Assembly: GCA_049322915.1 (NCBI GenBank)
Contig: JBMOPW010000034.1
Span: forward strand, 256,001-320,000
Origin: Candidatus Zhuqueibacterota bacterium
GTDB taxonomy: Bacteria; Zhuqueibacterota; Zhuqueibacteria; Thermofontimicrobiales; Thermofontimicrobiaceae
Direction: 5' to 3'
Length of the DNA stretch: 64,000 nt
Positions 45,369 to 64,000 of this stretch are shown here, in pieces. The translations under genes and the position numbers were made by a program. The notes below the pieces were generated by a model that searched no databases, was not told the origin of the DNA, and was given only the letters and a program-made list of their open reading frames with translations. The number at the start of each line of letters is the position of its first letter. The stretch's first letter is position 1.

Positions 45369-45514
45369 GGCGTTTCTCCGTTTAAATTTTCGCTGCATGG
45401 GCGCCGGGGATCATTCTGCCCAAATCAATTCGCGGAAAAGACCTTCCTGCGAGCGCATTCTCCCGGTCACCCGCTTATTTTCAGTGCATAGTCTATGTTT
45501 TTCGTTCATTCCAA

Positions 45515-46264: not shown

Positions 46265-46389
46265 TGAAATTATAAAACACTCGACTGTGATTTTTTAATT
46301 GCTGAACGTACCGGCGCCGATCACAGACTGGAAATCGCTTCGGCCCAACACTCCCGAGCACGGTCACTGTCAGTTCAACGCGCTGTGAA

Positions 46390-47040: not shown

Positions 47041-47704
47041 AGCGAGCCGTCAATTGTCCCTGGGTGAGAATCCATTTGGCGATGCGCTCATCCGTCGTCT
47101 GGTGATCGATGAAAATGACCGATTTCTGGCGCTCCATGAGCAGCGCAAAGAAATCCTGCCATTGGCCCATTTCAATTGCGGAGAAACCATTCATGACTTC
47201 ATCGAACAAAAACAGCGTGGCATTCTGCAGAAAGTAGATGAACGTCAACGCCAGCACCTTATCGGAAAAATCCATCTGACGGTACGGTCGATTCAGGCAT
47301 TCCCTGAAACGAGGGAAAATGCCGATGAATTCCTCACGCCGAACGTCAAAATCGCTCTGCTCGGTTTTTAGCAGCGACGTCGTGAATATCATTTCATCCT
47401 TCAAATTTTCCATCATCAGGAAAAAATCGATATTTTTACCCGGGACAAAACCGACCGCAGGGAACAGAGCGTTCGGCGCTGTCTGGAAAACCGCTGAATT
47501 GTCGAAGTAGATTTCACCCTGCAAAATACGACCTCGTTCGAAATGGGGAATCATTCCGACGATCAATTTGAGCAGGGTCGTTTTACCTGAGCCATTATCT
47601 CCGACTAACTGGACGATCTCTGCGCGATCCATTTTGCAGGATACGTTCTGAAAAAGCGGCTCATTCCGCCAGCCGAATGTTAGATTGTTTATGGACAGCA
47701 GCAT
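47033..47704 (-). CDS. ECF/ABC ATPase (Walker A/B kept, signature degenerate)
   Basis: GDNGSGKTT, G.IP.F..G...GEI, LFLFDE, IDH; signature position reads MDFSDK. Confidence 0.8.
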   Translation of the reverse strand: MLLSINNLTFGWRNEPLFQNVSCKMDRAEIVQLVGDNGSGKTTLLKLIVGMIPHFERGRILQGEIYFDNSAVFQTAPNALFPAVGFVPGKNIDFFLMMENLKDEMIFTTSLLKTEQSDFDVRREEFIGIFPRFRECLNRPYRQMDFSDKVLALTFIYFLQNATLFLFDEVMNGFSAIEMGQWQDFFALLMERQKSVIFIDHQTTDERIAKWILTQGQLTARYD

Positions 47705-47714
47705 GGCACTTCAT

Positions 47715-48269
47715 TCACTGGATGGTTTCCGGTTTTTGAAACGCCGGGAAAGCTTTCATCAAACCGCTGTAAAGCGCCCAGCTCAGATACCCGGCCACGC
47801 CGCCGAATAGAAACGACGGAATTAAACTGAGGATCAATGGAATTTTAGGCAGATGCATGATCATGAAGCCAACCAGCAATGCGCCGCTCACATTGCCCAG
47901 GGCCGTCGGGAAAAATAGCAGCCAATGACTTCGGAACGACCGGATCAATAAAAACCCGAGATCGATGAAAACTCCGGGTACAGTGTAAGTCAGCAATGTG
48001 AGAATGCCGTGCGAGCCATACAGGCCGGTGACCATTACGGCGATGCCTTGAATCAGTCCGACGAAGGTCGCAGCGCCAACGCGCTTTACCACCAGCAACG
48101 CCAGCATGGGCCAAATCATATAAATCGCACCGGCAATAGAACCGGATGGGATGAACAGCGCTGACCCAATCAGTTTCGCCAGGGGACCAACAATCGGCTT
48201 CAGGGCAATGCCGCATGCAGCCATGAGCGCGATGAAAACCGCATCCAGAGTAGATATTTTTTTCAGCAT
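47715..48269 (-). CDS. ECF transporter S (substrate-binding) component
   Basis: 184 aa, about 6 TM; ST.D..FIA, V.R.GAAT..G..QG; first gene of an S-A-A'-T cluster. Confidence 0.82.
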   Translation of the reverse strand: MLKKISTLDAVFIALMAACGIALKPIVGPLAKLIGSALFIPSGSIAGAIYMIWPMLALLVVKRVGAATFVGLIQGIAVMVTGLYGSHGILTLLTYTVPGVFIDLGFLLIRSFRSHWLLFFPTALGNVSGALLVGFMIMHLPKIPLILSLIPSFLFGGVAGYLSWALYSGLMKAFPAFQKPETIQ

Positions 48270-48652: not shown

Positions 48653-48751
48653 TGGCGGGAATGTGTGGGAATCGAACCCACCTGTCCCGACTCTGGTCGG
48701 GGCACTACAGATTTGAAGTCTGCGGGGCCCACCAGGTACCCTTCCACTCCC
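48653..48751 (-). tRNA. selC: tRNA-Sec (anticodon UCA)
   Basis: 99 nt GGGAGTGG...GCAGA-CTTCAAA-TCTGT, long variable arm CCCGAC-CAGA-GTCGGG, T arm GTGGG-TTCGATT-CCCAC, discriminator G + CCA; TGGT D-loop. Confidence 0.95.
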
Positions 48752-49265: not shown

Positions 49266-50267
49266 TTATTTCGGGGTTTGTCGCTCGAATATTTTTCTGG
49301 TTACCTCGCCAAGGAGCGGTTCTTGTTTTAACCAGCGCTCCATATCCGCTACGACAGAGGCGCCGAGATCACTGCGCCAGTATTTTGAGAAACTGCCAAT
49401 ATGAGGTGTGCAAATTACGTTTGGGAGATTTAATAAGGGATGACTCACGGGAAGCGGTTCTTCCTGATAGACATCCAGCGCCGCATAGATTCGTCCGGTT
49501 TTCAGAATTTCAATGAGCGCCGTTTCATCGATAATCGGACCACGGGCGGTATTAATGAGCAAAGCGCCATCCTGCAACGAAGTCAATTCCCTTTTTCCAA
49601 TCATTCCTCGTGATTGTGAGGTCAGCGTGTTATGCAGCGAGATAATTTGGCTTCGACGTAACAGCTCATCCAACGAACAAATTTCAGCGCCCATTTCCCG
49701 GGCCTGCTCATGGTTGACATGATGCGAATGAAGCAGAATATGCGCGTGAAAGAACTTGAGAAACGGAATTAGCATGCGCGATATTTCGCCGTAGCCAATC
49801 AGTCCAACAGTCTGCCGCTCCAGCCCCATCACCAGATCCCTTTCATTGTTCACCCAGCTCCCACCTTTCAATTGGTGGATGAACTGCGGAATCTGCCAGG
49901 CTGCGCACAACATAAGCGCCAGACAGAATTCGGTGGTCGAGCGGGCTAATGAATTATTGGCGTTTACAATGGTGATGTTTCTGTCGAAAGCGAGGGGATC
50001 AATAAATGGTACGATCGTGCCGGCGGTGTGCCCAATGAATTTGAGTTTTGATGCTTGCTCCAACACTTTTCTGGTTAATTTGGGAGAGCGCCAGCCCGAA
50101 ATAACTGCATCGAAATCCCCGATGATTTTTTCCAGAGGCTCGCCGCAATAGCTTTCCCCTTCAGGAACCCAGGTTACTTCTGAAAGTCCATTGAGTTTGG
50201 CGATGGTGGCTTCACTAAAAATAATCTTTTTCAGATCAGGATGGCATACGGTAACCAATGTTTTCAT
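49266..50267 (-). CDS. D-isomer-specific 2-hydroxyacid dehydrogenase
   Basis: VGLIGYGEI, INTARG, ALDVY..EP, TPHIG. Confidence 0.9.
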   Translation of the reverse strand: MKTLVTVCHPDLKKIIFSEATIAKLNGLSEVTWVPEGESYCGEPLEKIIGDFDAVISGWRSPKLTRKVLEQASKLKFIGHTAGTIVPFIDPLAFDRNITIVNANNSLARSTTEFCLALMLCAAWQIPQFIHQLKGGSWVNNERDLVMGLERQTVGLIGYGEISRMLIPFLKFFHAHILLHSHHVNHEQAREMGAEICSLDELLRRSQIISLHNTLTSQSRGMIGKRELTSLQDGALLINTARGPIIDETALIEILKTGRIYAALDVYQEEPLPVSHPLLNLPNVICTPHIGSFSKYWRSDLGASVVADMERWLKQEPLLGEVTRKIFERQTPK

Positions 50268-50289
50268 TAAATTTTACCTCTCCTGTGAT

Positions 50290-51162
50290 TTATTCGATGG
50301 GTGGATTCTGACTTATTCTTGAGGCGATTTTCTTCATATAGTTGGCATAGCTGGGAAGAATGATTTCTGCTTCGGCGCCTTTGAATTGTAGCTCGGGACG
50401 CCACTTGCTTTCCCATTCCAGCGAGAAGAATCCTTCATAATGATCGTTTAACAATAGTTTAATTATTTCTTCATTTGGAATAATTCCTTCTCCCAGCCGG
50501 GTATATTCCCAGCGATGTAATTCTTGATCGGCGAAGGGTCTGCCGTCTTTGATGTGAACGTGCCGGCAATGGGAACCAAGCCATTCCAGCGTCTCTTCGG
50601 GCGCTTCCTGATCTTCCAGTGGATGCATCACATCCCAGATGGCGCCGCAATTTTTTCTATCAACATCTTTGAATAACTGATGCAGCGCCTGGCCCGTGCC
50701 GTATTCATTGTGGGTTTCCACCCAGATTTCAATATCAAAATTTTGGGCGAGCTGGCAGGCTTGCTGGATGAATTCAACGATTCGGTCGTGATCAATCCGT
50801 TCTTTTTGGTCGCTGTGTCGGTTGATAAAATTTCCCAAAAATATCCGGACTCCGCAGGCCTTCAGATCTGCCGCAAGCCCGATATTCGCAAGCAGCAGTT
50901 TCATTTTCTGTACTCGATCTTCGCTGTCATTTCCCAGAATGCAAACACTGCTGCCGATATTGGTGATCCGAATGCCGTTTTGTTCAAACAGTTTTCGGAT
51001 TCGATCTCGCGCCTGGCTGGTTAGCATGACTGACGCCCAGCTCTCATCTGATTCACGGAGCTCGATCCCTGCAAAGCCATATTTGCGACAATATTCGATC
51101 ATCTCTTCAGGCGGCCAGCCAGCGCAGGGTAAAGTGCTGTAAGCAATTTTTAACATGTTCAA
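50290..51162 (-). CDS. Sugar phosphate isomerase/epimerase (xylose-isomerase-like TIM barrel, AP_endonuc_2)
   Basis: GF.GIELR, VETH, WDVMH, HVHIKD, LEWE. Confidence 0.85.
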   Translation of the reverse strand: MNMLKIAYSTLPCAGWPPEEMIEYCRKYGFAGIELRESDESWASVMLTSQARDRIRKLFEQNGIRITNIGSSVCILGNDSEDRVQKMKLLLANIGLAADLKACGVRIFLGNFINRHSDQKERIDHDRIVEFIQQACQLAQNFDIEIWVETHNEYGTGQALHQLFKDVDRKNCGAIWDVMHPLEDQEAPEETLEWLGSHCRHVHIKDGRPFADQELHRWEYTRLGEGIIPNEEIIKLLLNDHYEGFFSLEWESKWRPELQFKGAEAEIILPSYANYMKKIASRISQNPPIE

Positions 51163-52838
51163 TTTCCCCGATTTTTCTGGCTCATAAAATAAAAAGCAAC
51201 TCCAAAGCTGATGGTGACGCCGATGTAGATGAGCAGCGAACCATGATCCGCCCTGGGAATGAAAAAAATCAGAATTAAACTGACCAATCCGATCAGCAGG
51301 GTGGTTCGACTCAAAAATCGAAAGACGGTCTGCGTGATACTTTCTGTTTCTCCGACCTCATGCGCCAGGTCAATCGGCGTATCAAGTTTTTGATAAAATA
51401 TATTCCGCGGTTGAACGTATTTTGAGTTTTTTTCTTTCAACATAATACAGGCATAGTAAACCAAAATTCCCATGGGGATGATGAGAAAAACCCTGGCGAC
51501 AAAATTCCACTGAAAAACAAAACTGGTCAATATTCCCAGAATCAATGAAACTGAAAACGAGACAATCGCGGAGAAGTGGGGGGCTTTTCGTTCGATCAAA
51601 CCCAACAAAGCCGGCGGCCCATACGCCAGAGAAATAATCGTATTGAACGTCAACATCGTGACAAAAACACTTTCACCGCTGCTGGCCATGACAATTGCAA
51701 TGGTCGGGACAAGGAGACCCACGGCCAGGGTGGTTAATCTCCCCAGCAGCAGGATGCTGCGATCACGGTTAATTTTGAACAGCGTTTGAAAAATATCTTT
51801 TGAAAGAATGGCCGAATGCATGTTATAAAAGCTGGAAAGACTCGACATGCTGGCGCTGAAAATCGCTGCGAGCATAATCCCGATCAGTCCGTTGGGAAGC
51901 AGGGTCAAACTGGCCAGGGCGTAGGCACCCTCTTCGGGGTTGGGTAAATTCGGAAAAATTTCGGCAATATTGGGATAGAGAATCCGCATCGCCATCGGTG
52001 GGATGAACCACAGAAATGTACCGAAGAAAAACATGAGGCTGGTGAACAGGGCAACTTTTTTGGCAGAACGCTCGCTATCAACACTGAAATAGCGCTGGGC
52101 ATTGACCGATGTGTTGTAGGCGAAAAAATTGACCAATCCAAAACATAGAATATAGGTGAACATCGATTTTTCCGAGTGACCCAAAGTGAGCAGTTGCGCT
52201 GGCAATGATGAAAAAAAAGCGCTAATTCCGCCGACTTTAGCCAGCGCCATGAAAAACATGACGATGGTGAATGGGACTAAAATGATACCCTGGATAAAAT
52301 CCGTGATCATTACCGCCCACAATCCGCCTAAAAAGCAGTAAGCTAAAATAATCAACCCTGCAATCACAATCGTCCAGAATAGCGGAAAGCCAGAGATGGA
52401 TGATAGAAAAACACCCAGACCAAACAGAACGCTGCCAGCCATGAAAAGCTGAAACAAAATACTGCTCCAGGAAAAAATCTGTCGGGTTGGCTCATTGTAT
52501 CTTTGGTTAAGATATTCCATCACCGAAGACACCCGGGTACGGCGCCAGGGTGCGGCAAATACCAGATAGCCAATGAAAAACGAAATTGCCGTACCGAGGT
52601 ACATGAGGATGGCAGTGATCCCTTCTTTGTACGCAATGCCGGCCGCGCCGGTAAAAGTCCAGGCGCTAAAGCCACTCATGAACGAGCTGAGTCCGGCCAC
52701 CAACCAGGGAATTTTATTGCCGCCTATAAAAAAATCTGACTCACCTTTGTTAAATCGCATGAAATAAAAACCGACCCCAAGGGTGAGCAGTAGATATAGA
52801 ACAAGAATCACATAGTCGATGAATAGAATTGATTTCAA
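51159..52838 (-). CDS. Sodium:solute symporter (SSS)
   Basis: FFIGG..IPW, FSAWTF.G.AG, GGLWAV..TD..Q, QRY, GL.G..LAA.F.A.MSS. Confidence 0.92.
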   Translation of the reverse strand: MKSILFIDYVILVLYLLLTLGVGFYFMRFNKGESDFFIGGNKIPWLVAGLSSFMSGFSAWTFTGAAGIAYKEGITAILMYLGTAISFFIGYLVFAAPWRRTRVSSVMEYLNQRYNEPTRQIFSWSSILFQLFMAGSVLFGLGVFLSSISGFPLFWTIVIAGLIILAYCFLGGLWAVMITDFIQGIILVPFTIVMFFMALAKVGGISAFFSSLPAQLLTLGHSEKSMFTYILCFGLVNFFAYNTSVNAQRYFSVDSERSAKKVALFTSLMFFFGTFLWFIPPMAMRILYPNIAEIFPNLPNPEEGAYALASLTLLPNGLIGIMLAAIFSASMSSLSSFYNMHSAILSKDIFQTLFKINRDRSILLLGRLTTLAVGLLVPTIAIVMASSGESVFVTMLTFNTIISLAYGPPALLGLIERKAPHFSAIVSFSVSLILGILTSFVFQWNFVARVFLIIPMGILVYYACIMLKEKNSKYVQPRNIFYQKLDTPIDLAHEVGETESITQTVFRFLSRTTLLIGLVSLILIFFIPRADHGSLLIYIGVTISFGVAFYFMSQKNRGN

Positions 52839-52879
52839 AATTTTCTCCCAACTTTGCCAGCCTGAAAAAATAGTAAAAG

Positions 52880-54175
52880 TTAAGGCAAAACAAATGTCAA
52901 GGTATGCCCATCTTTACCGAGATCGAAACCTTGGGTGATGTTCGTTTTTTTAAATTTGATTTGAATTTCGTAGCTGCCGAGAAATCCCCGTGTTCCAAAC
53001 TGACCCTGCTCATCGGTTATTCCCTGGTTATTTGTCCACCATTTATTGAAAACTAAATCTTTATACACCAACCCATTTGGCTTCATTGACCAGTCTTTGC
53101 GGAATAATGCCCGTGGCGGTTTCCAATGGGCGCCTTCCCAGAAGCCCCACATATTAATGCACTCAACAGCCGGATGGCTGAATACCGTGACATAAAAATC
53201 ATGCAGGTATTGCGCCTGTTGTTGTTCGTTGATTCCCTCATGATCGAACTCAGTGATGCGCAGCGGCAAGCCAAATTTGGCCAGGCGATCAATGCGCTGG
53301 AAAACCGTATCAGCCTGAAAAACAGTATCGCGTTCCATGTGCCCCTGAATGCCAACCGCGGTGATTGGAGCGTTGTGATCCAAAAGATATTGAATGTTCT
53401 TTTCCAACGGATCGATATTTTTTCCCGTGAGCAGAAGATTATTTTCATTCAGAACCAAAACCTGTTCAGCTAACTCCTGGCGAGCTACCTGGAACCAGTC
53501 CAGCATAATTTCATTGCCGAAAATATCCATGATTTCATGATGTTCGGCAGGCTCATTGATGACATCCCATTCGTCAATATAGTCTCTCGTGGCGCGGGTG
53601 ATTTCGTGAATATGGTCGAGAATTATCTGCGGCAGACCTTCGGGATGGTGTCTGTAAGGTTTGAGATACATCGGCATATAACGCCAGCTTGGCCAGACAA
53701 GGTTCGTCGCCCTTACATAAATATTTTGTGCTTTTAACCAGCGTAGCACCGCCAGCGTCCGCTCCCGATCAAACGGATTTCCAGGAACGATATACTCTTC
53801 GGTTTTAAAGCGGGTCTGATCCCACTCCCCATTCCAGGGCCCCCACTTGAGTTCCGAGGCGAGAACGCCAGCATTGAAATGCTCCAAAAATAGCTGCTTA
53901 TACGTTTCATTGGTAAAAGCGCCATACAACAATCCTGATTTCAACTCCGAACCAAACAGGAAGGCATGTTTTTTCATGCTGATTTGGACTTCGGCCCCGC
54001 TTACTGGCTTGCCGTGACTATCTTTCACTACAATAGTTATGGCTGCCTTCCGATGTTTTTCAATCCTTTTTTCTGCCTCCTGGAAAATTCCCAATTTCTG
54101 GGCGTGCAAAGGAATTGCGTATATCACCACCAATGAAAAAAAAAGAAATCTGTATATTTTAGCTTGCATTATCAC
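52880..54175 (-). CDS. GH10-family glycoside hydrolase, no C-terminal sorting domain
   Basis: Signal peptide; WDVINE acid/base, GIQGH, RITEFD nucleophile, MWGFW. Confidence 0.88.
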   Translation of the reverse strand: MIMQAKIYRFLFFSLVVIYAIPLHAQKLGIFQEAEKRIEKHRKAAITIVVKDSHGKPVSGAEVQISMKKHAFLFGSELKSGLLYGAFTNETYKQLFLEHFNAGVLASELKWGPWNGEWDQTRFKTEEYIVPGNPFDRERTLAVLRWLKAQNIYVRATNLVWPSWRYMPMYLKPYRHHPEGLPQIILDHIHEITRATRDYIDEWDVINEPAEHHEIMDIFGNEIMLDWFQVARQELAEQVLVLNENNLLLTGKNIDPLEKNIQYLLDHNAPITAVGIQGHMERDTVFQADTVFQRIDRLAKFGLPLRITEFDHEGINEQQQAQYLHDFYVTVFSHPAVECINMWGFWEGAHWKPPRALFRKDWSMKPNGLVYKDLVFNKWWTNNQGITDEQGQFGTRGFLGSYEIQIKFKKTNITQGFDLGKDGHTLTFVLP

Positions 54176-54289
54176 AATCCATCGAAGTTAGATACGATTG
54201 AAGATTCAGATTCACGAACACAATTGCTTTGAATGATTTCTGAGCTGATGCCTGTGGCAGTCGGTGTCTGAAATCACGATCCGCCTGCC

Positions 54290-55906
54290 TTATTTCAGGA
54301 GCGTCATTTTATTAATCTTTTGAAAAAATTCTGATTCCAATTTACAGAGATACAATCCACTAGCGACATTGTTTCCCGATTCATCCGCACCATCCCAGTT
54401 GGAAATATATCGACCGGCAGACAGCGATCTATTTACCAGGCATCTGACCGTTTTACCCAGTAGATTATAAATCGAAAGATTAACAAAGCCATCCCTGGGC
54501 AGGACATAAACAATTGCGGTCGTCGCGTTAAATGGATTGGGATAATTTTGCTGAAGCATAAACTCACCCCAATGATTGCTGTCGGTAGCCCTGATGGATG
54601 TGCTGAACTCAGGCTTTAACTGGAAAATCACTTCGTTACTGTTTTTTTCCAGATCAAAGGTTTTACTAAAAGTCGAATCGTGGTGAATGACTTTGATCTC
54701 GTAGCTGCCTAAAAATCCACGTCCCTGAAATTTACCCTGGCTGTCGGTATTACCCTGAAAATTCGACCACCACCTATTGAAAACCAGGTCTTTGTACGCC
54801 AAACCGTTCGGTTTGATCGACCAATCCTTGCGATAAAGCGCTCGTTGTGGTCGCCAATGCGAACCCTCCCAGAAACCCCACATTTGAATGCCGCTCACTC
54901 CCGGATGGCTAAACACTGTGATAAAAAAATCATGCAGATATTGAGCCTGTTGCTGTTCGTTGATGCCCTCATGATCGAATTCAGTAATTCTGATATCAAG
55001 ACCAAATTTGGAGAAACGGCTAATCCGATAGAAAATTATGGCAGGATCCAACTGGCTGTCTTTTTCCATATGCCCCTGAATGCCGATTCCGTCCAGTGGA
55101 GCGTTATGGTCCAACAAATATTGGATTTCCTGCTCGACTTTGATCAAGTTCTCTGCGGTGAGCAGAATGCCATTTTCATTGATGAACAGTTTGCAGTCGG
55201 GCAGTTCTTCCCGAGCGGTTTCAAACCAATCCACCATGATCGAATCGCCGAAAATGTCCATGACATCATGGCAGGTGGCTGGCTCATTGACGACATCCCA
55301 TTCATAAACGTAATCTTTGGTGGCAGATGTAACATCCCTGATGCGATTGATGATAACCTCTGGTAATCCAGCCGAATTGGTGTGATAAGGCTCCAGGAAA
55401 AGCGGCATATAATTCCACTTGGGCCAGATGAGACCATGCGCTCGAAAAAAAAGGTCATTCTCTTTAAACCATGCCAAAGCACCCATGGTCCTTTCTCGGT
55501 CGAATGGATTCCCGGGAATCAAATATTCCGAAGTTTTAAAACGGCTCTGATCCCATTCGCCTTCCCAGGGACCCCATTTCAGATCACTGGAAAACGTGCC
55601 CGAATTGAATAGTTCTAAAAAAGTCGCTCTGTATTGTTCGATGGCATACGGACCAAATACCAGCCCCGCTTTCACTTCGGATCCAAATAAAAAAGCGTGC
55701 TTTTTCATATTGACTTCGATAGCAGCGTTGGAAATTATGTTGCCAGCTTCATCCGTGACAATAATGGTGAAATCCCCTTTTCGATATTGTTCGATACGCT
55801 TGTCCGCTTCTTCATAACTGCCCCACGTTTGAGCACGCGCCATGGTTGACAGCAGTAACAATCCAGCTAAAACGATCATCAGATAAGTAAACAATTTTTT
55901 TATCAT
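54290..55906 (-). CDS. GH10-family glycoside hydrolase with T9SS/FlgD-type C-terminal domain
   Basis: Signal peptide; WDVVNE, GIQGH, RITEFD; QNYPNPFN..T.I.Y...IYNLLG..V..L...WDG.D..G..VASG.Y...KMTLLK. Confidence 0.9.
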   Translation of the reverse strand: MIKKLFTYLMIVLAGLLLLSTMARAQTWGSYEEADKRIEQYRKGDFTIIVTDEAGNIISNAAIEVNMKKHAFLFGSEVKAGLVFGPYAIEQYRATFLELFNSGTFSSDLKWGPWEGEWDQSRFKTSEYLIPGNPFDRERTMGALAWFKENDLFFRAHGLIWPKWNYMPLFLEPYHTNSAGLPEVIINRIRDVTSATKDYVYEWDVVNEPATCHDVMDIFGDSIMVDWFETAREELPDCKLFINENGILLTAENLIKVEQEIQYLLDHNAPLDGIGIQGHMEKDSQLDPAIIFYRISRFSKFGLDIRITEFDHEGINEQQQAQYLHDFFITVFSHPGVSGIQMWGFWEGSHWRPQRALYRKDWSIKPNGLAYKDLVFNRWWSNFQGNTDSQGKFQGRGFLGSYEIKVIHHDSTFSKTFDLEKNSNEVIFQLKPEFSTSIRATDSNHWGEFMLQQNYPNPFNATTAIVYVLPRDGFVNLSIYNLLGKTVRCLVNRSLSAGRYISNWDGADESGNNVASGLYLCKLESEFFQKINKMTLLK

Positions 55907-55997
55907 TAAAATTCCCTTATGGTTAACGACAATACAAAATCAGGTGCAGATATTTCTGCACTGTCATTGCCTGATGAATACAATCGCAACATCCCTG

Positions 55998-57017
55998 CTA
56001 AAAGCCGATACTCAAGGTGAACATTTGCGCTTCAATCAGCTCGTTAAAATTCTGATAGCCATAATCGATTTGCAGTTCGGTTCCAATGAGTGCATAGTGG
56101 AAGCCGACGCCGACCGAAAGCCCGGTATTAATTTCTTCATTGAAGAGCGAATTATATCCTGCTCTCAGCGCAAACATTTTATTGAATACATACTCCAATC
56201 CCAAATTCAGGCTCTCATTGCTGTTGTTGGGATGCAGCGCATCCATCGATAACAGGAGATTGCTTTTTCCTATTCCTTTCAAAACATCCATCGATATTCC
56301 GATTCTGAACATGATTGGGAGATCATACGCTTCGGTCTTCAACAGGGCATTGGTATTTTCACTGGTCCCACTGTAACGGTCATCAATCCGGGTCTGAATC
56401 AACAAATCTTTGCCATCCATGCGCATTTTACCGCCGTAGTTGGAAATGCTCATTCCCAATTGCAGCCCATTGAATTGCGTGGTAAAAAGTGTGCCCACAT
56501 CAAAGGCAATGGCAGAAGCGCTGCTGTTATATATTCTCTCGTTGATGTATTTAAAGCTGCCGCCAATGGAAAATCGATCCGTTAAATCCCGGGCATAGCT
56601 CAGTCCCATCACGTAACTTCCCGCATCGAAAAATTCACCATTGCCATCAGGGAAATCGACGGTGGTACGTTCCATTCGATCCATAATGATAAATTTCGCC
56701 TGGGCGCCGATAGTGCCAAATCCAGCAATGGGAACCGTGACCCCGACAAAGTTGATATCAATATCCGCGATCCATTTCGTGTGACAGAAAAGCGCACTGT
56801 TATCTTTAATCCTGGCAATCCCCGCCGGATTCCAGTACATGGCAGAGGCGTCATTGGCAATGGAGACAAAAGATCCCCCCATCGCAACAGCACGGGAACC
56901 GACATCGATATTGAGATAATTGGCAACCGTGGTTCCTGTCTTCGTGAGTGAGCTTTGACCAAACAGATCGAAGCAGAGGAACAACAGCCCATTTATGATT
57001 AACCCTATTTTTCGCAT
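55998..57017 (-). CDS. PorV/PorQ-like outer-membrane beta-barrel
   Basis: GSRAVAMGGSFVSIANDASAMYWNPAG; strands; ends IGF. Confidence 0.88.
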   Translation of the reverse strand: MRKIGLIINGLLFLCFDLFGQSSLTKTGTTVANYLNIDVGSRAVAMGGSFVSIANDASAMYWNPAGIARIKDNSALFCHTKWIADIDINFVGVTVPIAGFGTIGAQAKFIIMDRMERTTVDFPDGNGEFFDAGSYVMGLSYARDLTDRFSIGGSFKYINERIYNSSASAIAFDVGTLFTTQFNGLQLGMSISNYGGKMRMDGKDLLIQTRIDDRYSGTSENTNALLKTEAYDLPIMFRIGISMDVLKGIGKSNLLLSMDALHPNNSNESLNLGLEYVFNKMFALRAGYNSLFNEEINTGLSVGVGFHYALIGTELQIDYGYQNFNELIEAQMFTLSIGF

Positions 57018-57053
57018 TTCAATTCTCCTTAAAATTAACGCAGACAGAACCCG

Positions 57054-60000
57054 CTACTTGATTACCGCAAACTTTCCAGTCCGTTGTCCCACTTCATCGG
57101 CGTCGATGTAATAAATGAAGATCCCGAATCCGATTTCCATATTATCTTTGGTGAGCATATTCCAGATTTCGGCGCCATCATCAAGCTCGTTATCATGCTC
57201 GATGGTGTTTATCAACTGGCCCCGAATATCGAATATTTTTATCGTACATTTTCGGGGCAGGTGGGTGAAATGCAACTCTCGCGGTCCTCGGCCTCTGGCA
57301 TACGGATTGGCGGGCTCAAAGGAATTGGCAACAATGTAGGGATTGGGAACTACTCGAATCTTATCAAGTTGCCGGGCTGCCAGGAGCTTGTCCTCCTGCG
57401 CCGCGGTGGTCATAAATTCGAGAATATCATTCGATAGAAATGGCTTGATGGTATGAATAATGAGCGTATCGCCAGTCTGGGGATTCCGCTTCAACGAGTC
57501 GAAGGTCGCCATTTCAACAGCATGGCAGAGCGTATAGTTATTCAATGAATCAGATTGGAGAAGATAGATTTGATCCCGACGGGTCAATTTTGTATAGGAA
57601 GTAAATAATCCTTTCAAACTATCTGCGGCATAGTCCAATTCTCGAAAGGCAAAAAGAACATCTTCACCCGTAAACCAATCCACCACTTTAAAATTGACCT
57701 CGATGGATTCGGCCCTGACAGGCGTGTACTTCACTGATTTCCCAATCCCGCGCTCGCCAAAAATAATTTTCACATCGATTGGCAAGAGTTTTGTCTTGAA
57801 AGAAGGCATCGGTACCAGGGTGAAGTCGTAAATGTCAGGCGCGCTCCAGCGGCTCCTGGCTGCATCGAGCGCCAGTTCGGCGGGGTTGTCAAATACCAAT
57901 TGAAAACCATCGACAATGGGAATTTCTGCTGCAAGACTGAATTGATCCAGCAAAATTTTTGGCTCATTTGAATCGGTAATGTCGGTCAGGGTGAATGATT
58001 TTGTGGCCAATTCCGTAAGCACGGTATCATTAAACGTGACCTGATAGGTATGATCATCTTTAATAAAATTCGGATCAATCATCTCCAAATTTACGGTTCC
58101 GCTGGCATGTCCGGCAATGTGCTGCAAATCGCCGCTGCTGGCGGGGACATAACCTGCCGCAGGCGCTCTGGGAACCACGGCCACGACATTCTCTGAAATA
58201 TTGATTATTTCGCCCGTCTGTCCCAGTGTCAATTGACGGCTGCATTCGGTCGGTGGCACCAATAAGGAATCATTGCCCCGATCATAAGAAACCACGGCAT
58301 AAAAGTATGTAATTCCATTCTTCACCGTGGTATCGACCCAGGTGTGCTGCAAACCGCTGTCATCGCCCAGGTTGTATTGAACGCCATCAATGGCACCCAT
58401 CGACAAACCTTTAATTCCATTTTTAAGATCAAAAATTACCAATGGCTGCTGGCCAATGACCGAACCATAGGCATTGGTCACCTGCTTCATATCTTTCCAT
58501 TGGTCATCGGTGGATCGATAAATACGATAGCCCTCAAAATCTTTGCCGTTGATCGGATCAAAAGAATCTTCCGCCTTTGAATCCCAATAGAGCACCACCT
58601 TTTTGTCGCCTACCACAGCCGTCACTTCGGGCGTGATGGGCGCCTTGAAGAAATGATAATCTTCTTTAAAGGCTTTCTCCGAATGGTCTTTATTTCGAAC
58701 AATTGCGGCTTCGTCTTCGCCAAAAATCAGCGCGCCTGAAAAGCGTTCGATATCATCCGGGCGCATGGGAAAATAGCCCGAGCCCATAAATGGCGTGTTC
58801 GATTCCACCCAGATGACATTCTGGGGGGCATAGACCGTTCCTGGCGCAGTTAATTTCCAGATGCCTTCGTCATTGTAAAGCGGCGTGCGGTCCCACGGCG
58901 TATCCATGTAAAAAGCCGTCATGCCGATCAGATCGCTCTCATCAATGTCGGTCTTATCGATATTGGGTTCGCCAGGCAGACCCGTATCCACACCGTTGAG
59001 ATAGCCTGAAGTGGGCATTCCATCCCCTTCGCCAAAATCCGGGTTGAGTTTGTTTTGAGCGCCATCCAGGCCAATGTCATCGGTCTGTGAATTCCAATCG
59101 CCGTCTTCATCGATATTATTGTCGCGGCGCTCATCGATCATCCGGTTATCCAGCCCCGCGCCGGAGAAATAGTCCACTGCCCGTCTTCCGACGTAAATAT
59201 ATTTCGATAAAGTTAGTCCGGTAGTATCCGTCAACGCCCCATTGTTTTCATCAATGATGCCGTTCAAATTGTTGTCAATGTTATCGAAGGGTATTTCTTC
59301 CAATATCTTTCCCGGCCAGGCAATTGCTTTTTGGTTGTCCTGAAACAATATTTTAATCGTATCATTGGGCATAGTGGTTCGGCTGCGCTGGAAGGTGAGA
59401 TAATCCGTGATAATAATTTCATCGCCAGCCTGTACCGCTTTTTGAACAAACATGGATTCATCGATGATGATACCACTGCCGATGAAGCCATCGCCATCAT
59501 TATCGATACCATCTTTGGAATTGCCAGGCGTTTCAAACAGGGTGTAGCCGCACCAACCTGTCGTAAAATTGGTGGCGCCTTTCCCATCCTGATCATAGAA
59601 ATACAAAAATCGTTCATCTTTTTCAAACAGACCGACATCATCCGTCCACTCAGAGCCATGATTCTTAGCGGCAGCGCCAATTGTGAATCCCGGCACCTGA
59701 ATAAAATTGACTTTATTGTGATTGTAAGTGCCGATATTTTTCACATCGTAAACAACGAACATCACGTCTTTCACCAGGGGGTTATTCCACTGCAGGCTGC
59801 GCACCTGAATCCGCATCCCCAGACCCCGACGGCTTAAATCCATTGCATCCGGATAAAATTCAAATTCCCGGTTGTGATAGTCATCCACCACAAAGTAACT
59901 CTCCTGATCGGCATTGGCAAATTCCCGCCCTTTGGCGAACAGGCTATTCCACGTGCCGGGCCAGCCCGGATCGACTGGATCCGCTTCTTTATCAGGCCAG

Positions 60001-60491
60001 CTTTTGGGCCAGGACCAGGGCAGGTGACTCATGGCGACGGAATTTTCTGCCACTCCTTCAGTGGCAGTCGCATTGTAATTAGCAAATCCAGGCAGTGGCG
60101 TCAGTGTCCACCATTCGCTGCGATTCAACGGATTGGTATCACCCGAGCTGCCATGAGTGCCTGTGGTGTTGGTGCCATGGGATTCGGAGATGATGGTCTG
60201 ACGATTTCCATTCACATCGAATACTTCCGCGCCGACTAACAGGACGATTTTTGAGAAATAATAATGACCACTGCCTTTGGGCCATTCCCCGTGGATTTCA
60301 TTGGTCTCTTCGGCACCGAGACGGCCGAACATTCCGTAATTAAAAAAATGCGTTTGAATGTTATTGCCATTGTGCAAGCCTCGCAGCACGTAGGCCTGGT
60401 CGCCGTGTAAATCATCAATGCCACCGTAGCCATGTTGTGAAGCCGTTATCAGGAAAACACATATTAAAAGATTCATCGCAAATAGTTTCAT
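57054..60491 (-). CDS. Large secreted protein with Dx[DN]xDG-type Ca motifs, Fn3-like domain and T9SS-like C-terminal domain
   Basis: AAGGAG SD before ATG 60491; signal peptide; DGIDNDGDG, DNIDNNLNG, DEDGDW; FEGYRIYRS...YFYAVVSYD; IRVVPNPY...F.HLP..CTI.IF...G.L...GKFAVIK. Confidence 0.8.
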   Translation of the reverse strand: MKLFAMNLLICVFLITASQHGYGGIDDLHGDQAYVLRGLHNGNNIQTHFFNYGMFGRLGAEETNEIHGEWPKGSGHYYFSKIVLLVGAEVFDVNGNRQTIISESHGTNTTGTHGSSGDTNPLNRSEWWTLTPLPGFANYNATATEGVAENSVAMSHLPWSWPKSWPDKEADPVDPGWPGTWNSLFAKGREFANADQESYFVVDDYHNREFEFYPDAMDLSRRGLGMRIQVRSLQWNNPLVKDVMFVVYDVKNIGTYNHNKVNFIQVPGFTIGAAAKNHGSEWTDDVGLFEKDERFLYFYDQDGKGATNFTTGWCGYTLFETPGNSKDGIDNDGDGFIGSGIIIDESMFVQKAVQAGDEIIITDYLTFQRSRTTMPNDTIKILFQDNQKAIAWPGKILEEIPFDNIDNNLNGIIDENNGALTDTTGLTLSKYIYVGRRAVDYFSGAGLDNRMIDERRDNNIDEDGDWNSQTDDIGLDGAQNKLNPDFGEGDGMPTSGYLNGVDTGLPGEPNIDKTDIDESDLIGMTAFYMDTPWDRTPLYNDEGIWKLTAPGTVYAPQNVIWVESNTPFMGSGYFPMRPDDIERFSGALIFGEDEAAIVRNKDHSEKAFKEDYHFFKAPITPEVTAVVGDKKVVLYWDSKAEDSFDPINGKDFEGYRIYRSTDDQWKDMKQVTNAYGSVIGQQPLVIFDLKNGIKGLSMGAIDGVQYNLGDDSGLQHTWVDTTVKNGITYFYAVVSYDRGNDSLLVPPTECSRQLTLGQTGEIINISENVVAVVPRAPAAGYVPASSGDLQHIAGHASGTVNLEMIDPNFIKDDHTYQVTFNDTVLTELATKSFTLTDITDSNEPKILLDQFSLAAEIPIVDGFQLVFDNPAELALDAARSRWSAPDIYDFTLVPMPSFKTKLLPIDVKIIFGERGIGKSVKYTPVRAESIEVNFKVVDWFTGEDVLFAFRELDYAADSLKGLFTSYTKLTRRDQIYLLQSDSLNNYTLCHAVEMATFDSLKRNPQTGDTLIIHTIKPFLSNDILEFMTTAAQEDKLLAARQLDKIRVVPNPYIVANSFEPANPYARGRGPRELHFTHLPRKCTIKIFDIRGQLINTIEHDNELDDGAEIWNMLTKDNMEIGFGIFIYYIDADEVGQRTGKFAVIK

Positions 60492-60634
60492 TGTGAGCTC
60501 CTTGAAATTGAAAAAAATTAAATTCACCACTTAACCCTACTACGTCATTTGGCAAGTTCTGCACAATATATTGTATGTTATGTTGTCAGAAAATACGCTA
60601 TATTGTTCTAATAATTCTAAGTGATGTTGTAGGG

Positions 60635-63610
60635 TTAAAATTCCAGCGAATAGCCCAATTGGATCTGTCGTGGCGGTTGATACCAGCCTGGATTCTTCCA
60701 CAACTCTTCTATCGTGCCAATTCTACCTGAGTTATAGGGATAAAACTCCGGTCTTAAAAATGTTGAATAATCAGGGGATCCTGTATCGGCGTAAACATTG
60801 ATCGCGCCTTTCTGGTCGAAAAGATTGTAGATTCTAAAATAGAAAACATGTTTTAGTTTTGAATTGGTTCGACCAAATGTTTTACTAAGGAAAAAATCAA
60901 CATTCGTGATCGTCGGTCGGCGGGCGATGTTGTAATCCCAGCCGGCGTATTGACTGCCGCCGGTGGCTTCCGATTTGGCAATCGTCGGCGTATAAGGCAA
61001 GCCTGTTTCATATCTTCCGATCAAGGAAATGAGCCACCCGCTGAAATCCATTCGCACCGTCCCGCGCAACTGATGCTGTTGATCCCAATCCAGCGGGACT
61101 AACTTCTTGGTGGGTTCTTCATTCATGGTGATGGCGTTGAAGGCGTCGCTCGGGTCAGAATAGGTGCCTTCCACCACGCCAAAGGCATAATAGAGATTGG
61201 CTGAAAAATGTTGCGCATATTTCTTCTCCAGCGAGACCGTGATGCCGCGTGAGTTGGCATAATCCAGGTTCTGGTACATGGTGTACAACGCCCCGGAATA
61301 GGTCCGCATCGGCGAAATAAAACCGATCTGGTCGCGGATGTCTCGATAGTAAAGGGTCACATCCAATCCGACCGAGCTTCCCAGTTGCTGCTGCAAACCG
61401 ATTTCATAGGAAACCGTGGATTTGGCATCCAGGTCAGCGTTGCCAAAAATATCTGGCTCAGTGCCGCCGGATACTTTAAAATCAGGTCGGGCATACAAAT
61501 AGCTGAATCGTGGCATCTGGAAAAAGTGGCCGTAAGAGACATGGATAATTCCCTGATCCGAAATCGGGTAGGCAATGCCAATTCGGGGACTCACCTGCAT
61601 TTTCAGATCGACCGCTTGGTGCATGAACGCGCGTCGTTCCTCTGGCGTGTATTCCTCAAATTGACGCTCGTATTCTTCCAGACGGGATTGAATATTTTTT
61701 ATCTCATCGGGTGGCTCGATCCAATTTTTGTATTTCCATTCCTTGCGATAGGGACGATAAATATCAGGATCGCGATTATCGATAGGCTTCACATGATTCG
61801 CGTCAAAATAATCGAACCGCATTCCGATGTTCAAAATAATGTCTTTGTATTCCAGCTTGTCCTGGATGTAGGCGGAAAAAGCCTTTGGCTGGCGAGTGTA
61901 TTCATTGAACGAGGGGCTGGCGACGTCGGGCAAAACTGGCTTGAAAGCGCCGAATTCATCTTTGCTTTTGGTGACCACAAAATTTTTATTAAAATCATCA
62001 TACAGTTTCAATTCAAGACCGACTTTGAGCAGATGCTGTTTGGTGACCTGGCTGGTGATGTCAAATTTGCCCATCCAGTATGAAGAATGGCTGGCGTAAT
62101 GACTTCGATTCTGATTGAATCGGTTGAAACTTTGTCCGGGAACAGCCCCCATCATCGAGTCGGGATCAATATACCCTTTCGGCTGACCTGGATCAATAAT
62201 CCAGAACAGTCGGGTCGTGTCTGCATTTTTCAATGAAAAAAACAGGTCAGGATTTGAATCGGGATCAAAGGGATCCATGATCAGGCTGCCATCATCGCTA
62301 TCAATAAATCGTGCCAGATAATTGGGCGTTTTAAATGGATCTTTATAAAGATAACTTTCACTTTCCGAATAATCGTAGAGGAATTTTAGATCATAAAATG
62401 TAGTGGGACTGAGCATGTGCGTCAGGGCTAACAGATGCGAGTTGCCATGGCTGTAATTCTGAAGCCCGCCATCCGGAACGTACATGTTGCTTCTGCCCCC
62501 CGCGCTTCGCGGCTGGTCCGATGCATCGAAAAAAAGACTATACTTGACTTTGAAACCTGGATTCACTGACCAGGCGAGATTCATCAATCCGGTATATCGG
62601 GTGGACGGATTCAGCGCGACCAACGAGCTATCACCCGGGAGTCCTTCGGGAGTAAACCAGCGACGGCCATATTCCGAGCCAGTTAGATCCTGAAATCGGC
62701 CATGGGCAAAAAAGGTCACTTTGTTTTTCAGAAATGGAACAGGCCCGCTGAGTGCCGCCTCCAGATTGTATTCGGGATTGATGTGCTCGGCAACGGGATT
62801 TTCAGTCGCTCCGGTTCTGTTCGTTGTTCCGGTTCCGGGCGCCTGAACATCGTTGGTATTTTTGAGGACTGTGTATAAATCGTTGAATGACACGTAATCT
62901 CCGAGGTAAGCGGAAAGCCGGCCATGATAATTTATTTCTCCGCTTTTGGTGATGATATTCACGATGCCTGAATTTGCATTGCCATATTCAGCATTGAAAG
63001 CGCCGGTGACCACCTGGATTTCTTTAATTGCGTGGCTTTCGACAGCGACGCCCCGACCGGTTACAGGAACGCCATCGACCCAGGTTGCCACTTCGTCGCC
63101 CCTGCCGCCTCGAATGTGGCTCTCGCCACCCGTGCTAACCACTGCCGGTTGTAACAGCATAATGGCGCCAACCGACTGGACCGGCAGGTTGCTGATTTCC
63201 TCAGAATCCATTGTTTCTAATGAAGCGGTCATGTCTTTTTGAATCAGCGGGCGTTGCGCTTCCACGACTACCACATCGCCCTCAATCACCGTTGCTTCAA
63301 GGCTAATATCGATCGTGGTTGTAAAATCGACATTTACCCGGACAAGCTCGCGGCGGTGAGTTTTATACCCCATCATGGTTGCCACAACGGTGTAGCTGCC
63401 GGGAGGAATATTCAAAATTGCGTAATTCCCGTTCATGTCAGTCGCGGCGCCGATGAGTGTCCCTTCAATAACGACATTCGCACCGGGCAGGGGACTCTGA
63501 TTTTCCGCATCTTTTACGACGCCGGCAATCTTGCCGGTCGTGCCGGCAAAAGCATGAGGACTGAAACAGAGCAAAAGAAATATAAAAATAAAGCTCGCTC
63601 GTAATTTCAT
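60635..63610 (-). CDS. TonB-dependent receptor with N-terminal carboxypeptidase-regulatory-like domain
   Basis: GKIAGVV.D...PLPGANV, HIRGGR..E...VDGVP plug, G.FNAEYG...SG.VNIITK, SPRIG, YNLFD, PRQIQLGYSLEF. Confidence 0.93.
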   Translation of the reverse strand: MKLRASFIFIFLLLCFSPHAFAGTTGKIAGVVKDAENQSPLPGANVVIEGTLIGAATDMNGNYAILNIPPGSYTVVATMMGYKTHRRELVRVNVDFTTTIDISLEATVIEGDVVVVEAQRPLIQKDMTASLETMDSEEISNLPVQSVGAIMLLQPAVVSTGGESHIRGGRGDEVATWVDGVPVTGRGVAVESHAIKEIQVVTGAFNAEYGNANSGIVNIITKSGEINYHGRLSAYLGDYVSFNDLYTVLKNTNDVQAPGTGTTNRTGATENPVAEHINPEYNLEAALSGPVPFLKNKVTFFAHGRFQDLTGSEYGRRWFTPEGLPGDSSLVALNPSTRYTGLMNLAWSVNPGFKVKYSLFFDASDQPRSAGGRSNMYVPDGGLQNYSHGNSHLLALTHMLSPTTFYDLKFLYDYSESESYLYKDPFKTPNYLARFIDSDDGSLIMDPFDPDSNPDLFFSLKNADTTRLFWIIDPGQPKGYIDPDSMMGAVPGQSFNRFNQNRSHYASHSSYWMGKFDITSQVTKQHLLKVGLELKLYDDFNKNFVVTKSKDEFGAFKPVLPDVASPSFNEYTRQPKAFSAYIQDKLEYKDIILNIGMRFDYFDANHVKPIDNRDPDIYRPYRKEWKYKNWIEPPDEIKNIQSRLEEYERQFEEYTPEERRAFMHQAVDLKMQVSPRIGIAYPISDQGIIHVSYGHFFQMPRFSYLYARPDFKVSGGTEPDIFGNADLDAKSTVSYEIGLQQQLGSSVGLDVTLYYRDIRDQIGFISPMRTYSGALYTMYQNLDYANSRGITVSLEKKYAQHFSANLYYAFGVVEGTYSDPSDAFNAITMNEEPTKKLVPLDWDQQHQLRGTVRMDFSGWLISLIGRYETGLPYTPTIAKSEATGGSQYAGWDYNIARRPTITNVDFFLSKTFGRTNSKLKHVFYFRIYNLFDQKGAINVYADTGSPDYSTFLRPEFYPYNSGRIGTIEELWKNPGWYQPPRQIQLGYSLEF

Positions 63611-64000
63611 TTTGGGACTCCTGTTCTTTTAGAATATGATTGCATTGCGTTATCATGGCTATGTTTAAAATCTAACCGCGCATTATCCGTCAACAACGGG
63701 AAAGCGGGCGTTGGAATTATATAAGGTAAATTTGGTCGAGTAACAAACATCGGCGCGGATGTGAGTTTAATTTTATTCAACGCCGCCATATTTATTTTTA
63801 TTTTTGAATCATAGACCTGCTTTAGACTATCAAGATAATCATCAAAATAGGTGTGGCTTCCGCTGAGTCGGTTCGGGTCAAAATCTTTGCGCTGTGAAAT
63901 TTGTTTGATAAATTTATCCCGATGGTAAACCGCGACCAACGCGTCCTGCCATTTTCGAACATGCCGTCGCACTTGATCGGTTTTATCAATAGATTTTTTG
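63607..64000 (-). CDS. C-terminal part of an uncharacterised protein (5' truncated), possibly foldase/PPIase-like
   Basis: Frame open to the window edge; stop overlaps the receptor start (ATGA); YLDSLK..Y...IKIN tail resembles PrsA/SurA-type C-termini. Confidence 0.5.
   Translation of the reverse strand, partial: KKSIDKTDQVRRHVRKWQDALVAVYHRDKFIKQISQRKDFDPNRLSGSHTYFDDYLDSLKQVYDSKIKINMAALNKIKLTSAPMFVTRPNLPYIIPTPAFPLLTDNARLDFKHSHDNAMQSYSKRTGVPK

Follow-up and report, generated by a model that had tools for sequence, protein, structure and literature searches.

A SusD-free, xylan-type utilisation operon on a conserved module of a TonB-dependent transporter, a large secreted protein and a PorV/PorQ-family barrel

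The 64,000-nucleotide stretch of DNA analysed here (the window; C34:256001-320000, contig JBMOPW010000034.1, here C34, 755 kb long) ends in an operon whose gene content supports its designation as a xylan-utilisation operon that is free of SusD and resembles a polysaccharide-utilisation locus (PUL). The host is a bacterium of the Fibrobacterota-Chlorobiota-Bacteroidota (FCB) superphylum, the nearest named relatives of its proteins being those of KSB1 metagenome-assembled genomes (MAGs). According to the list of open reading frames (ORFs) and to Pfam and NCBIfam scans, all long ORFs of region 49266-64000 lie on the minus strand, and the intergenic gaps in the operon range from -4 to 143 nucleotides. 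The operon encompasses 11 genes over roughly 19 kb, the window carrying the distal eight and a fraction. Three further co-directional genes precede the gene for the TonB-dependent transporter (TBDT) past the window edge and were retrieved from an upstream extension (L001; C34:319001-338000). The core appears to be a four-gene module, encoding a SurA/PrsA-like lipoprotein, a TBDT that is not of the SusC type, a secreted protein of 1145 amino acids (called BIG here) and a dedicated outer-membrane barrel of the PorV/PorQ family (Table 1). An earlier reading made from the letters of the window alone (the sequence-only reading) had listed these genes in this co-directional order, which the ORFs and the Pfam and NCBIfam matches confirmed. 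The partial ORF with which that list began is present, being the 3' part of the lipoprotein gene, but the start of the locus lies beyond the window, with three more genes.

Table 1. Features of the operon and its 3' side, in window coordinates (T9SS, type IX secretion system; CTD, C-terminal domain; GH, glycoside hydrolase)
Feature	Position	Strand	Length (amino acids)	Details
SurA/PrsA-like probable lipoprotein, 3' part	63607-64000	-	521 (whole ORF)	whole gene L001:607-2172; window-equivalent end 65172
TBDT	60635-63610	-	991	CarbopepD_reg_2, Plug and beta-barrel families
BIG	57054-60491	-	1145	Sec signal and T9SS CTD; unannotated family
BIG, residues ~30-765	58197-60404	-		galactose-mutarotase-like beta-supersandwich, inserted DxDxDG-rich loops, FN3-like part
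BIG CTD, residues ~1035-1145	57057-57389	-		probable, divergent type-A T9SS CTD; conserved insertion after VVPNPY
PorV/PorQ-family (FadL-like) outer-membrane barrel	55998-57017	-	339	NF033709
GH10 xylanase with T9SS type-A CTD (GH10-CTD)	54290-55906	-	538	CTD ~54293-54544
GH10 xylanase without CTD	52880-54175	-	431	Sec signal
Sodium:solute symporter (SSS)	51159-52838	-	559	PF00474 4.9e-42; TIGR00813 7.4e-50
Xylose-isomerase-like TIM barrel (sugar isomerase/epimerase)	50290-51162	-	290	PF01261 2.9e-32
D-isomer-specific 2-hydroxyacid dehydrogenase	49266-50267	-	333	PF02826 9e-51; last operon gene
tRNA-Sec	48657-48751	-		Rfam RF01852, 63 bits, E 5.9e-11
ECF/cobalt-type transporter cluster	44616-48269	-		ABC_cobalt, ABC_tran, CbiQ and a MobB-like gene

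The TBDT possesses the architecture of a transporter, namely a plug domain followed by a large beta-barrel, with Pfam matches to CarbopepD_reg_2 (4.6e-21), Plug (6.1e-8; 33.6 bits, cut-off 23.9), OMP_b-brl_3 and OMP_b-brl_4. It scores 71.9 bits with the SusC/RagA model TIGR04056, against a cut-off of 368.25, and over residues 27-254 only. Its matches among PDB sequences cover only the plug regions of YncD, PqqU and FepA, and SusC-like chains do not occur among them. On these sequence comparisons, the TBDT is placed outside the SusC/RagA family. Similarly, no SusD (PF07980, SusD_RagB; PF14322, SusD-like_3) was found in the locus, the upstream extension included, and genome-wide these models gave 0 matches in a genome that is 96.3% complete. 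The absence of a SusD lipoprotein after the receptor, as claimed by the sequence-only reading, thus extends to the whole genome, and the pair that characterises SusC/SusD-type PULs, a susD gene adjoining a TBDT gene, is not found. It had also been envisaged that a SusD or another binding gene might lie just beyond the window. The former was rejected, as the genes upstream encode the SurA/PrsA-like protein, a carbohydrate-binding module (CBM)-like protein with a CTD and a CBM9 protein with a CTD; the latter two are binding genes, so that this part of the suggestion was borne out. In a sample of 151 genomes of the window's phylum, SusD_RagB matches were found in 57, mostly with 1-6 matches per genome, and in none of the window's genus. 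Five triad-bearing genomes of other groups gave 0-1 weak SusD matches each. One of the Melioribacter-labelled MAGs has a single SusC-like/SusD-family pair (L103:6530-10745, plus strand; 994 and 404 amino acids; SusD_RagB 4.4e-7), which sits among housekeeping genes, away from carbohydrate-active enzymes (CAZymes).

The likely start codon of BIG is the ATG at 60491, a GTG at 60530 being open too (1158 amino acids). No Pfam or NCBIfam model matched the protein. At least 1052 homologues occurred among 7999 scored candidates, all annotated as 'hypothetical' and without a precomputed Pfam domain, their named sources being mostly KSB1 and Calditrichaeota MAGs. A phmmer search over 1.84 billion representatives, clustered at 50% identity, retrieved 3632 of them at E<=1e-3, 1714 at E<=1e-10 and 544 at E<=1e-30, and the 30 nearest ESM Atlas clusters had no Pfam family in common. 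An AlphaFold2 (AF2) model, built from a 57-row alignment, reached a predicted local distance difference test (pLDDT) value of 84.7 and a predicted template modelling score (pTM) of 0.76. With the whole model, Foldseek returned nothing beyond generic arrays of FN3/Ig domains and, at a low TM-score, PorZ. A wide search with VIA-align matched the supersandwich to the N-terminal domains of GH94, GH15, GH65 and GH116 enzymes (Z 16-20; root-mean-square deviation (rmsd) 3.0-3.8 A; 240-285 residues aligned), followed by aldose epimerases and the periplasmic domain of YidC (Z 12-14). Judging from the modelled fold, the supersandwich may bind glycans. Orthologues share its DxDxDG-rich residues 331-570, a stretch that shows gaps or varies among paralogues, whereas conservation of the FN3-like part and of the CTD extends to both sets; an SWP..WPDK..DPGWPG motif is strongly conserved as well. 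A profile of the genome's own 177 CTDs matches the extreme C-terminus of 22 out of 22 BIG paralogues and, in BIG itself, the last 67 residues (E 1e-6 in the 22-sequence search). In addition, the best fold match of this domain is the CTD of PorZ (5m11_A, residues 684-776; Z 11.9, rmsd 2.1 A, 90 residues, 23% identity). The CTD of BIG is thus probably real, though divergent, and most like that of PorZ. The description of BIG as a large CTD protein is supported by own-genome profile and by fold, although the library hidden Markov models (HMMs) miss the domain.

The barrel encoded next to BIG belongs to the PorV/PorQ family (NF033709; 205.7 bits, cut-off 90; residues 29-339 against model positions 1-326), and the profile of its family matches PorV of F. 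johnsoniae (6h3i_F) at 1.1e-29. It lies below the equivalog cut-offs of both the T9SS PorV (NF033710; 74.3 bits versus 250) and PorQ (NF033711; 101.3 bits versus 220). Hence, 'PorV', as it was named at first, is correct for the family, but the gene is a paralogue, the housekeeping PorV being encoded elsewhere (C44:52873-53883; 258.3 bits, cut-off 250). The genome further contains SprA, two PorU sortases and about 180 CTD proteins, with only this one PorV above the equivalog cut-off. Its best PorQ-like barrel (C16:110673; 170.5 bits, cut-off 220) adjoins a 1020-amino-acid CTD protein on the opposite strand (C16:107403-111581), a possible housekeeping PorQ/PorZ pair. Barrel residues 24-339 (71-row alignment) and residues 1030-1145 of BIG, comprising its CTD, were modelled as a complex. 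The interface score ipSAE amounted to 0.88, 0.88 and 0.90, versus 0.00 for the best control; the contacts of the runs agreed for at least 91%, with a partner pLDDT of at least 77. Among solved complexes, 116 of 157 attain the mark applied to ipSAE, compared with 2 of 215 mismatched pairs. The model lends support to binding between the CTD of BIG and the neighbouring barrel, in line with the anchoring on a PorV-type barrel that the sequence-only reading had put forward. The CTD of PorZ is left uncleaved and binds PorQ, and cognate PorV-like barrels have been proposed to shield CTDs from cleavage (PMC10202324, in excerpt); by analogy, BIG and its barrel would fit this principle. In the beta-barrel assembly machinery (BAM) of Bacteroidota, which includes peptidyl-prolyl isomerase (PPIase) subunits, the FadL-like, 14-stranded BamG is packed against BamA and keeps hold of a surface lipoprotein (PMC12578637, in excerpt), an arrangement that may serve as an architectural precedent for an assembly of TBDT, barrel and surface protein.

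The TBDT, BIG and barrel genes constitute a conserved module, common in Bacteroidota relatives. When all 19,069 ORFs of the genome were searched by phmmer with the proteins of the locus and the matches checked for adjacency, 14 full-length triads emerged in the order TBDT, BIG, barrel, plus two with a shorter BIG. In two further loci of the TBDT-X-barrel type, on contigs C2 and C20, the gene in the middle likewise belongs to the BIG family and encodes a CTD (profile E 7.5e-78 and 6.9e-38), which brings the complete triads of the genome to 18; another is broken up by contig ends. Two atypical arrangements were found besides these. At C7:51682-55714 (plus strand), a TBDT directly precedes a PorV-like barrel without a BIG in between, representing either a reduced module or one with BIG in trans; at C26:170124-188206 (plus strand), four tandem BIG paralogues (1000-1044 amino acids) are followed by a TBDT that lacks an adjacent PorV-like barrel. 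Pairwise identities of TBDT, BIG and barrel correlate over 16 triads (Mantel r 0.82, 0.87 and 0.77; 0 of 2000 permutations attained these values), indicating that the three families duplicate and diverge as a unit, without this being proof of physical contact.

A scan of species-representative genomes yielded 587 relatives, of which the best 80 loci were searched with HMMs built from the paralogues of this genome; the sample is biased, as it consists of the loci most similar to this BIG. The loci originate from records labelled KSB1, Calditrichota, Ignavibacteria/Melioribacter/Ignavibacterium, Kryptonium, Neomarinimicrobiota, Stahlbacteria and Rhodothermales/Rhodothermus, and from some MAGs labelled 'Cytophagia' or 'Bacteroidota'. 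A TBDT gene occurs at most 1.5 kb upstream of BIG on the same strand in all 63 loci with room for it, and the barrel gene follows BIG immediately in 59 of 61 such loci, while in the remaining two (L075 and L084) it is found between TBDT and BIG. The triad is complete in 48 of the 48 loci with room on both sides, in canonical order in 46. These counts led to the rejection of chance adjacency, and bear out the triad that the sequence-only reading proposed to count across KSB1, Calditrichota and Ignavibacteria genomes. The order TBDT, barrel, BIG was seen in L075, L084 and L101 (MAGs of Ignavibacteriales, of Neomarinimicrobiota and labelled M. roseus), the first two with a SurA-like gene after BIG. 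Across the sample, a SurA-like gene lies directly upstream of the TBDT gene in 20 of 60 loci and anywhere in the locus in 31 of 80. In the sample of the window's phylum, 147 of 151 genomes contain BIG, among them 102 of the 105 of high quality; without the unpublished genomes G094 and G150 that these tallies include, BIG occurs in 145 of 149 and SusD_RagB in 55 of 149.

The association of the triad with CAZymes, suspected earlier, proved frequent. Pfam analysis of 168 genes flanking the own-genome copies revealed a GH or CBM match in 7 of 19 triad regions (raw count). Apart from the present locus (GH10 and CBM9), these contain, one set per region, GH13 and a DUF4961+CBM20+CTD protein; GH16+malectin+CTD and CBM9+CTD proteins and an SSS gene; GH94, two glucoamylase-like genes, CBM9+CTD and LacI; GH38 and DUF4185; GHL10+CTD; and GH57. 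Two more regions contain CTD proteins with BNR repeats. Outside this genome, 88 flank genes were inspected at the 24 of 80 loci with at least 3.5 kb on both sides, considering at most the four nearest. A GH or CBM gene was found at 15 of these 24 loci (raw count), mostly GH13 and CBM20+CTD, besides GH66 and GH29/GH43; a CTD protein was found at 19, often directly after the barrel, and LacI-type regulators and SSS symporters recur. The module is generic, with paralogues in loci for starch, beta-glucan, mannosides and probably peptides. Consequently, the glycan role ascribed to it at first applies to this PUL-like locus, but not to every copy, as some lie beside peptidases.

The substrate of the present copy is indicated by two GH10 genes, tandem paralogues (phmmer E 1e-181) whose closest solved relative is xylanase 7d88 (1e-44, PDB sequence search). 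GH10-CTD matches PF00331 at 8.8e-35 (120.9 bits, cut-off 22.1), along with Por_Secre_tail, FlgD_ig and TIGR04183; its CTD-less counterpart does so at 5.9e-30 (105.0 bits, same cut-off). Both carry a Sec signal peptide and the motifs WDVxNEP (WDVVNEP in GH10-CTD) and ITEFD, which presumably hold the catalytic residues, namely the acid/base glutamate in WDVxNEP and the nucleophile glutamate in ITExD. The CTD-bearing enzyme is predicted to be at the cell surface or extracellular and the CTD-less one to be periplasmic, in agreement with the earlier proposal of one hydrolase outside and one in the periplasm. On the upstream side of the TBDT gene, the 521-amino-acid ORF, whose stop overlaps the TBDT start by 4 nucleotides, encodes a signal peptide followed by a cysteine. 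Its AF2 model (pLDDT 79.6, pTM 0.79) is matched best by SurA (9hga_F; E 3e-5), then by PrsA foldases, all at low TM-scores, and SusD is not among the listed Foldseek matches. The protein is thus a probable SurA/PrsA-like lipoprotein, going by its modelled structure. It yielded no Pfam match and, in a phmmer search of PDB sequences, nothing. The family consensus comprises two parvulin PPIase domains, and paralogues match Rotamase at 1e-27 to 1e-32; as this copy lacks a Pfam match, its PPIase domain may be degenerate.

Upstream of the lipoprotein gene are the genes for a 586-amino-acid protein with three repeats of about 150 amino acids (weak Sialidase-like CBM match) and a CTD, and for a 355-amino-acid CBM9+CTD protein, beyond which the strand switches. 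From there, a divergent second glycan locus (L001:5672-18126, plus strand; C34:324672-337126) runs away from the operon start, with genes for GH89 (NAGLU), a URO-D-like protein, an esterase, a RhaT-like permease and a 1252-amino-acid PcRGLX-like (rhamnogalacturonan-lyase-like) protein, followed by TRAP DctP. At the distal end, the TIM-barrel protein has no more than weak epimerase matches in NCBIfam. After the operon come roughly 0.5 kb devoid of long ORFs and then a tRNA-Sec gene, from which it follows that the organism uses selenocysteine; the ECF/cobalt-type cluster beyond it is unrelated to the operon. A scan of the operon's 3' end gave 4 sigma-70 sites versus 3.0 expected and 1 terminator versus 0.8, not above shuffled sequences.

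Taken together, the locus is best explained, and probably so, as a xylan operon built on the SurA-like/TBDT/BIG/barrel module, with BIG as a SusD-like partner of the transporter. First, the T9SS would export the CBM9-CTD protein, the triple-repeat CBM-like CTD protein, GH10-CTD and BIG, given their CTDs and the presence of SprA, PorV and PorU in the genome. Secondly, BIG would be kept on the surface with its CTD remaining in the cognate barrel, as PorZ on PorQ, as the complex model and the fold likeness suggest. Thirdly, the surface CBM proteins and GH10-CTD would bind and cut xylan, whereupon BIG, located beside the TBDT, may hand over the oligosaccharides in a role like that of SusD or a surface glycan-binding protein (SGBP). 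The TBDT would then import the oligosaccharides, to be trimmed in the periplasm by the CTD-less GH10, and uptake of the products would fall to the SSS symporter. Lastly, the SurA-like lipoprotein may aid in the folding or assembly of the module.

Several points weigh against this explanation. The role of BIG as a lid that hands over substrate is purely what we infer, and the upstream CBM-CTD proteins could do all of the glycan capture. The supersandwich fold also occurs in proteins that do not act on carbohydrates, such as the YidC periplasmic domain (Z 12-13). The library CTD models (PF18962, TIGR04183) do not find the C-terminus of BIG at E<=0.01. The score of the CTD-barrel complex may reflect likeness to known structures, since PorV-cargo complexes have been solved (6h3i and the 8gl series), and the model concerns the cognate pair alone, so that it is no measure of specificity relative to the housekeeping PorV or ordinary CTDs. 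As to context, the own-genome regions with a GH or CBM match are only 7 of 19 by raw count; other regions lie beside peptidases (M20, S51 and tricorn-like S41), GWxTD/TPR proteins or uninformative genes. Finally, SusD occurs alongside BIG in 57 of the 151 sampled genomes of the phylum, indicating that the module is not a strict replacement.

It is rather unlikely, on balance, that the transporter works without a lid, as in Proteobacteria, with BIG being a co-regulated adhesin, spacer or enzyme that the barrel merely anchors, and with the CBM-CTD proteins capturing the glycan. The CBM9+CTD and triple-repeat CBM-like+CTD genes upstream, the CBM20+CTD proteins directly after the barrel in many relatives and the position of the transporter outside the SusC family are all consistent with such a lidless transporter. 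However, the triad persists at all testable loci of several phyla, whereas the CBM and GH genes around it vary, and its three families co-diversify. SusC/SusD pairs are linked in a similarly invariant way.

An export or assembly device is improbable as well. In that case the TBDT, like Oar of Myxococcus, would secrete or assemble BIG or other surface proteins together with the PorV-like barrel and a PPIase-type chaperone, which would echo the translocon of SprA, PorV and a peptidyl-prolyl isomerase. SprA reportedly purifies with PorV and a PPIase, and PorV-type barrels are shuttle components of the T9SS. Moreover, the module has a linked gene for a PPIase-like chaperone, and the TBDT Oar is reported to be required for secretion of PopC (PMC6434023). 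Against this, the genome already possesses SprA, PorV and PorU, BIG carries a T9SS CTD and the TBDT retains its plug domain; the approximately 18 paralogous modules in substrate-specific loci with LacI, symporters and periplasmic enzymes fit import. A catalytic BIG, as a new family of glycoside hydrolases, lyases or mutarotase-like enzymes at the mouth of the transporter, can be given very little credence, for although the supersandwich is common to aldose-1-epimerases (Z 12-14) and to enzyme domains of GHs and polysaccharide lyases, and the SWP..WPDK..DPGWPG motif is strongly conserved, only the non-catalytic N-terminal domains of GH94, GH15 and GH65 enzymes were matched, the BIG model contains no (alpha/alpha)6 or TIM catalytic domain, and the family recurs in loci whose substrates differ chemically.

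The module, with BIG as the presumed partner of the TBDT, shares several features with the SusC/SusD PULs of Bacteroidota. In both, a TBDT with a carboxypeptidase-regulatory-like domain is invariably paired with the gene of a surface protein, the genes around the pair encode GHs specific to the substrate, binding proteins, a regulator and an inner-membrane transporter, and many paralogous loci occur per genome. Unlike SusC/SusD PULs, the present locus lacks SusD, and its TBDT falls short of the SusC/RagA model. Its partner is a T9SS-exported CTD protein of 1145 amino acids, whereas SusD is a TPR-like lipoprotein. Furthermore, a PorV/PorQ-family barrel and often a SurA-like lipoprotein are part of the unit, and the accessory binding proteins have CTDs instead of lipid anchors. 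SusD-less loci are also known from Proteobacteria; in the carbohydrate-utilisation TBDT (CUT) loci of Xanthomonas, for example, the TBDT shares an operon with genes for glycoside hydrolases, a regulator and transport across the inner membrane, as here. They are unlike the module in that they are not known to have an obligate surface partner, a T9SS or a PorV-like barrel.

Similarly, the gene of a CTD protein adjoins that of a PorV/PorQ-family barrel in the PorZ-PorQ, PorU-PorV and SprB-SprF pairs (PMC10202324, in excerpt). The CTD of BIG is structurally nearest that of PorZ, and the barrel scores higher on the PorQ than on the PorV model. What sets BIG and its barrel apart from these cognate T9SS pairs is their integration into a TBDT operon and their presence in about 18 copies per genome; also, BIG is without the beta-propellers of PorZ and the barrels stay below the PorV and PorQ equivalog cut-offs. 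The Bacteroidota BAM illustrates that a 14-strand FadL/PorV-like barrel can pack on a larger barrel and hold a surface protein via loops (PMC12578637, in excerpt). The BAM folds outer-membrane proteins, however, and its surface partners are lipoproteins (BamH) and not CTD proteins, so that the likeness resides in the FadL-like fold.

The 'sus operon' of Melioribacter roseus (Mros0758-0763), in which Mros0761-0759 were named SusC, SusD and SusE beside a CBM48 enzyme and GH13 (PMC3534657, in excerpt), matches in order and context the TBDT-BIG-barrel-CBM20/48+CTD loci of Melioribacter-labelled MAGs (L031), and may consist of the same genes. If these are the same genes, the paper named the genes of the triad by analogy, and the module is undescribed in those parts of its text. 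The portion of the Caldithrix genome paper that was covered mentions only BtuB- and thiamine-type TBDTs. The Prokaryotic Genome Annotation Pipeline (PGAP) names the module's proteins 'hypothetical protein', 'PorV/PorQ family protein' and 'T9SS type A sorting domain-containing protein'. In published full text, a coverage that subscription journals fall outside and that hence provides no proof, no description of a TBDT/CTD-protein/PorV-like module was found. The module thus combines two known kinds of system, TBDT-based utilisation loci and T9SS cognate-barrel anchoring, in a form that is apparently undescribed.

In relatives of the Bacteroidota, the module may do the job of SusC/SusD. PULDB defines PULs by the susCD tandem, on which prediction outside the Bacteroidota relies too (PMC5753385, in excerpt), and such prediction is blind to these loci. 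The module would be a second marker of nutrient-uptake loci in abundant, mostly uncultured phyla of sediment, soil and ocean. It joins TonB-dependent import and type IX secretion, which are usually treated apart, and it allows a function to be proposed for a large unannotated family (3632 representatives without a Pfam or NCBIfam model). This function is testable, as the MAGs carrying the module are labelled Melioribacter, Ignavibacterium, Caldithrix and Rhodothermus, genera with cultured members. More tentatively, and with doubts prevailing, the module may represent an FCB-wide 'utilisome', in which BIG, with its CTD uncleaved, sits in a dedicated PorQ-like barrel packed on the TBDT and acts as a substrate-capturing lid like SusD. 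If so, the T9SS with a cognate barrel would be an alternative, perhaps older, route for placing the partner of a transporter on the surface, and susCD-based prediction would have missed the majority of loci for glycan (and peptide) uptake in KSB1, Calditrichota, Ignavibacteriota, Marinimicrobia and their relatives.

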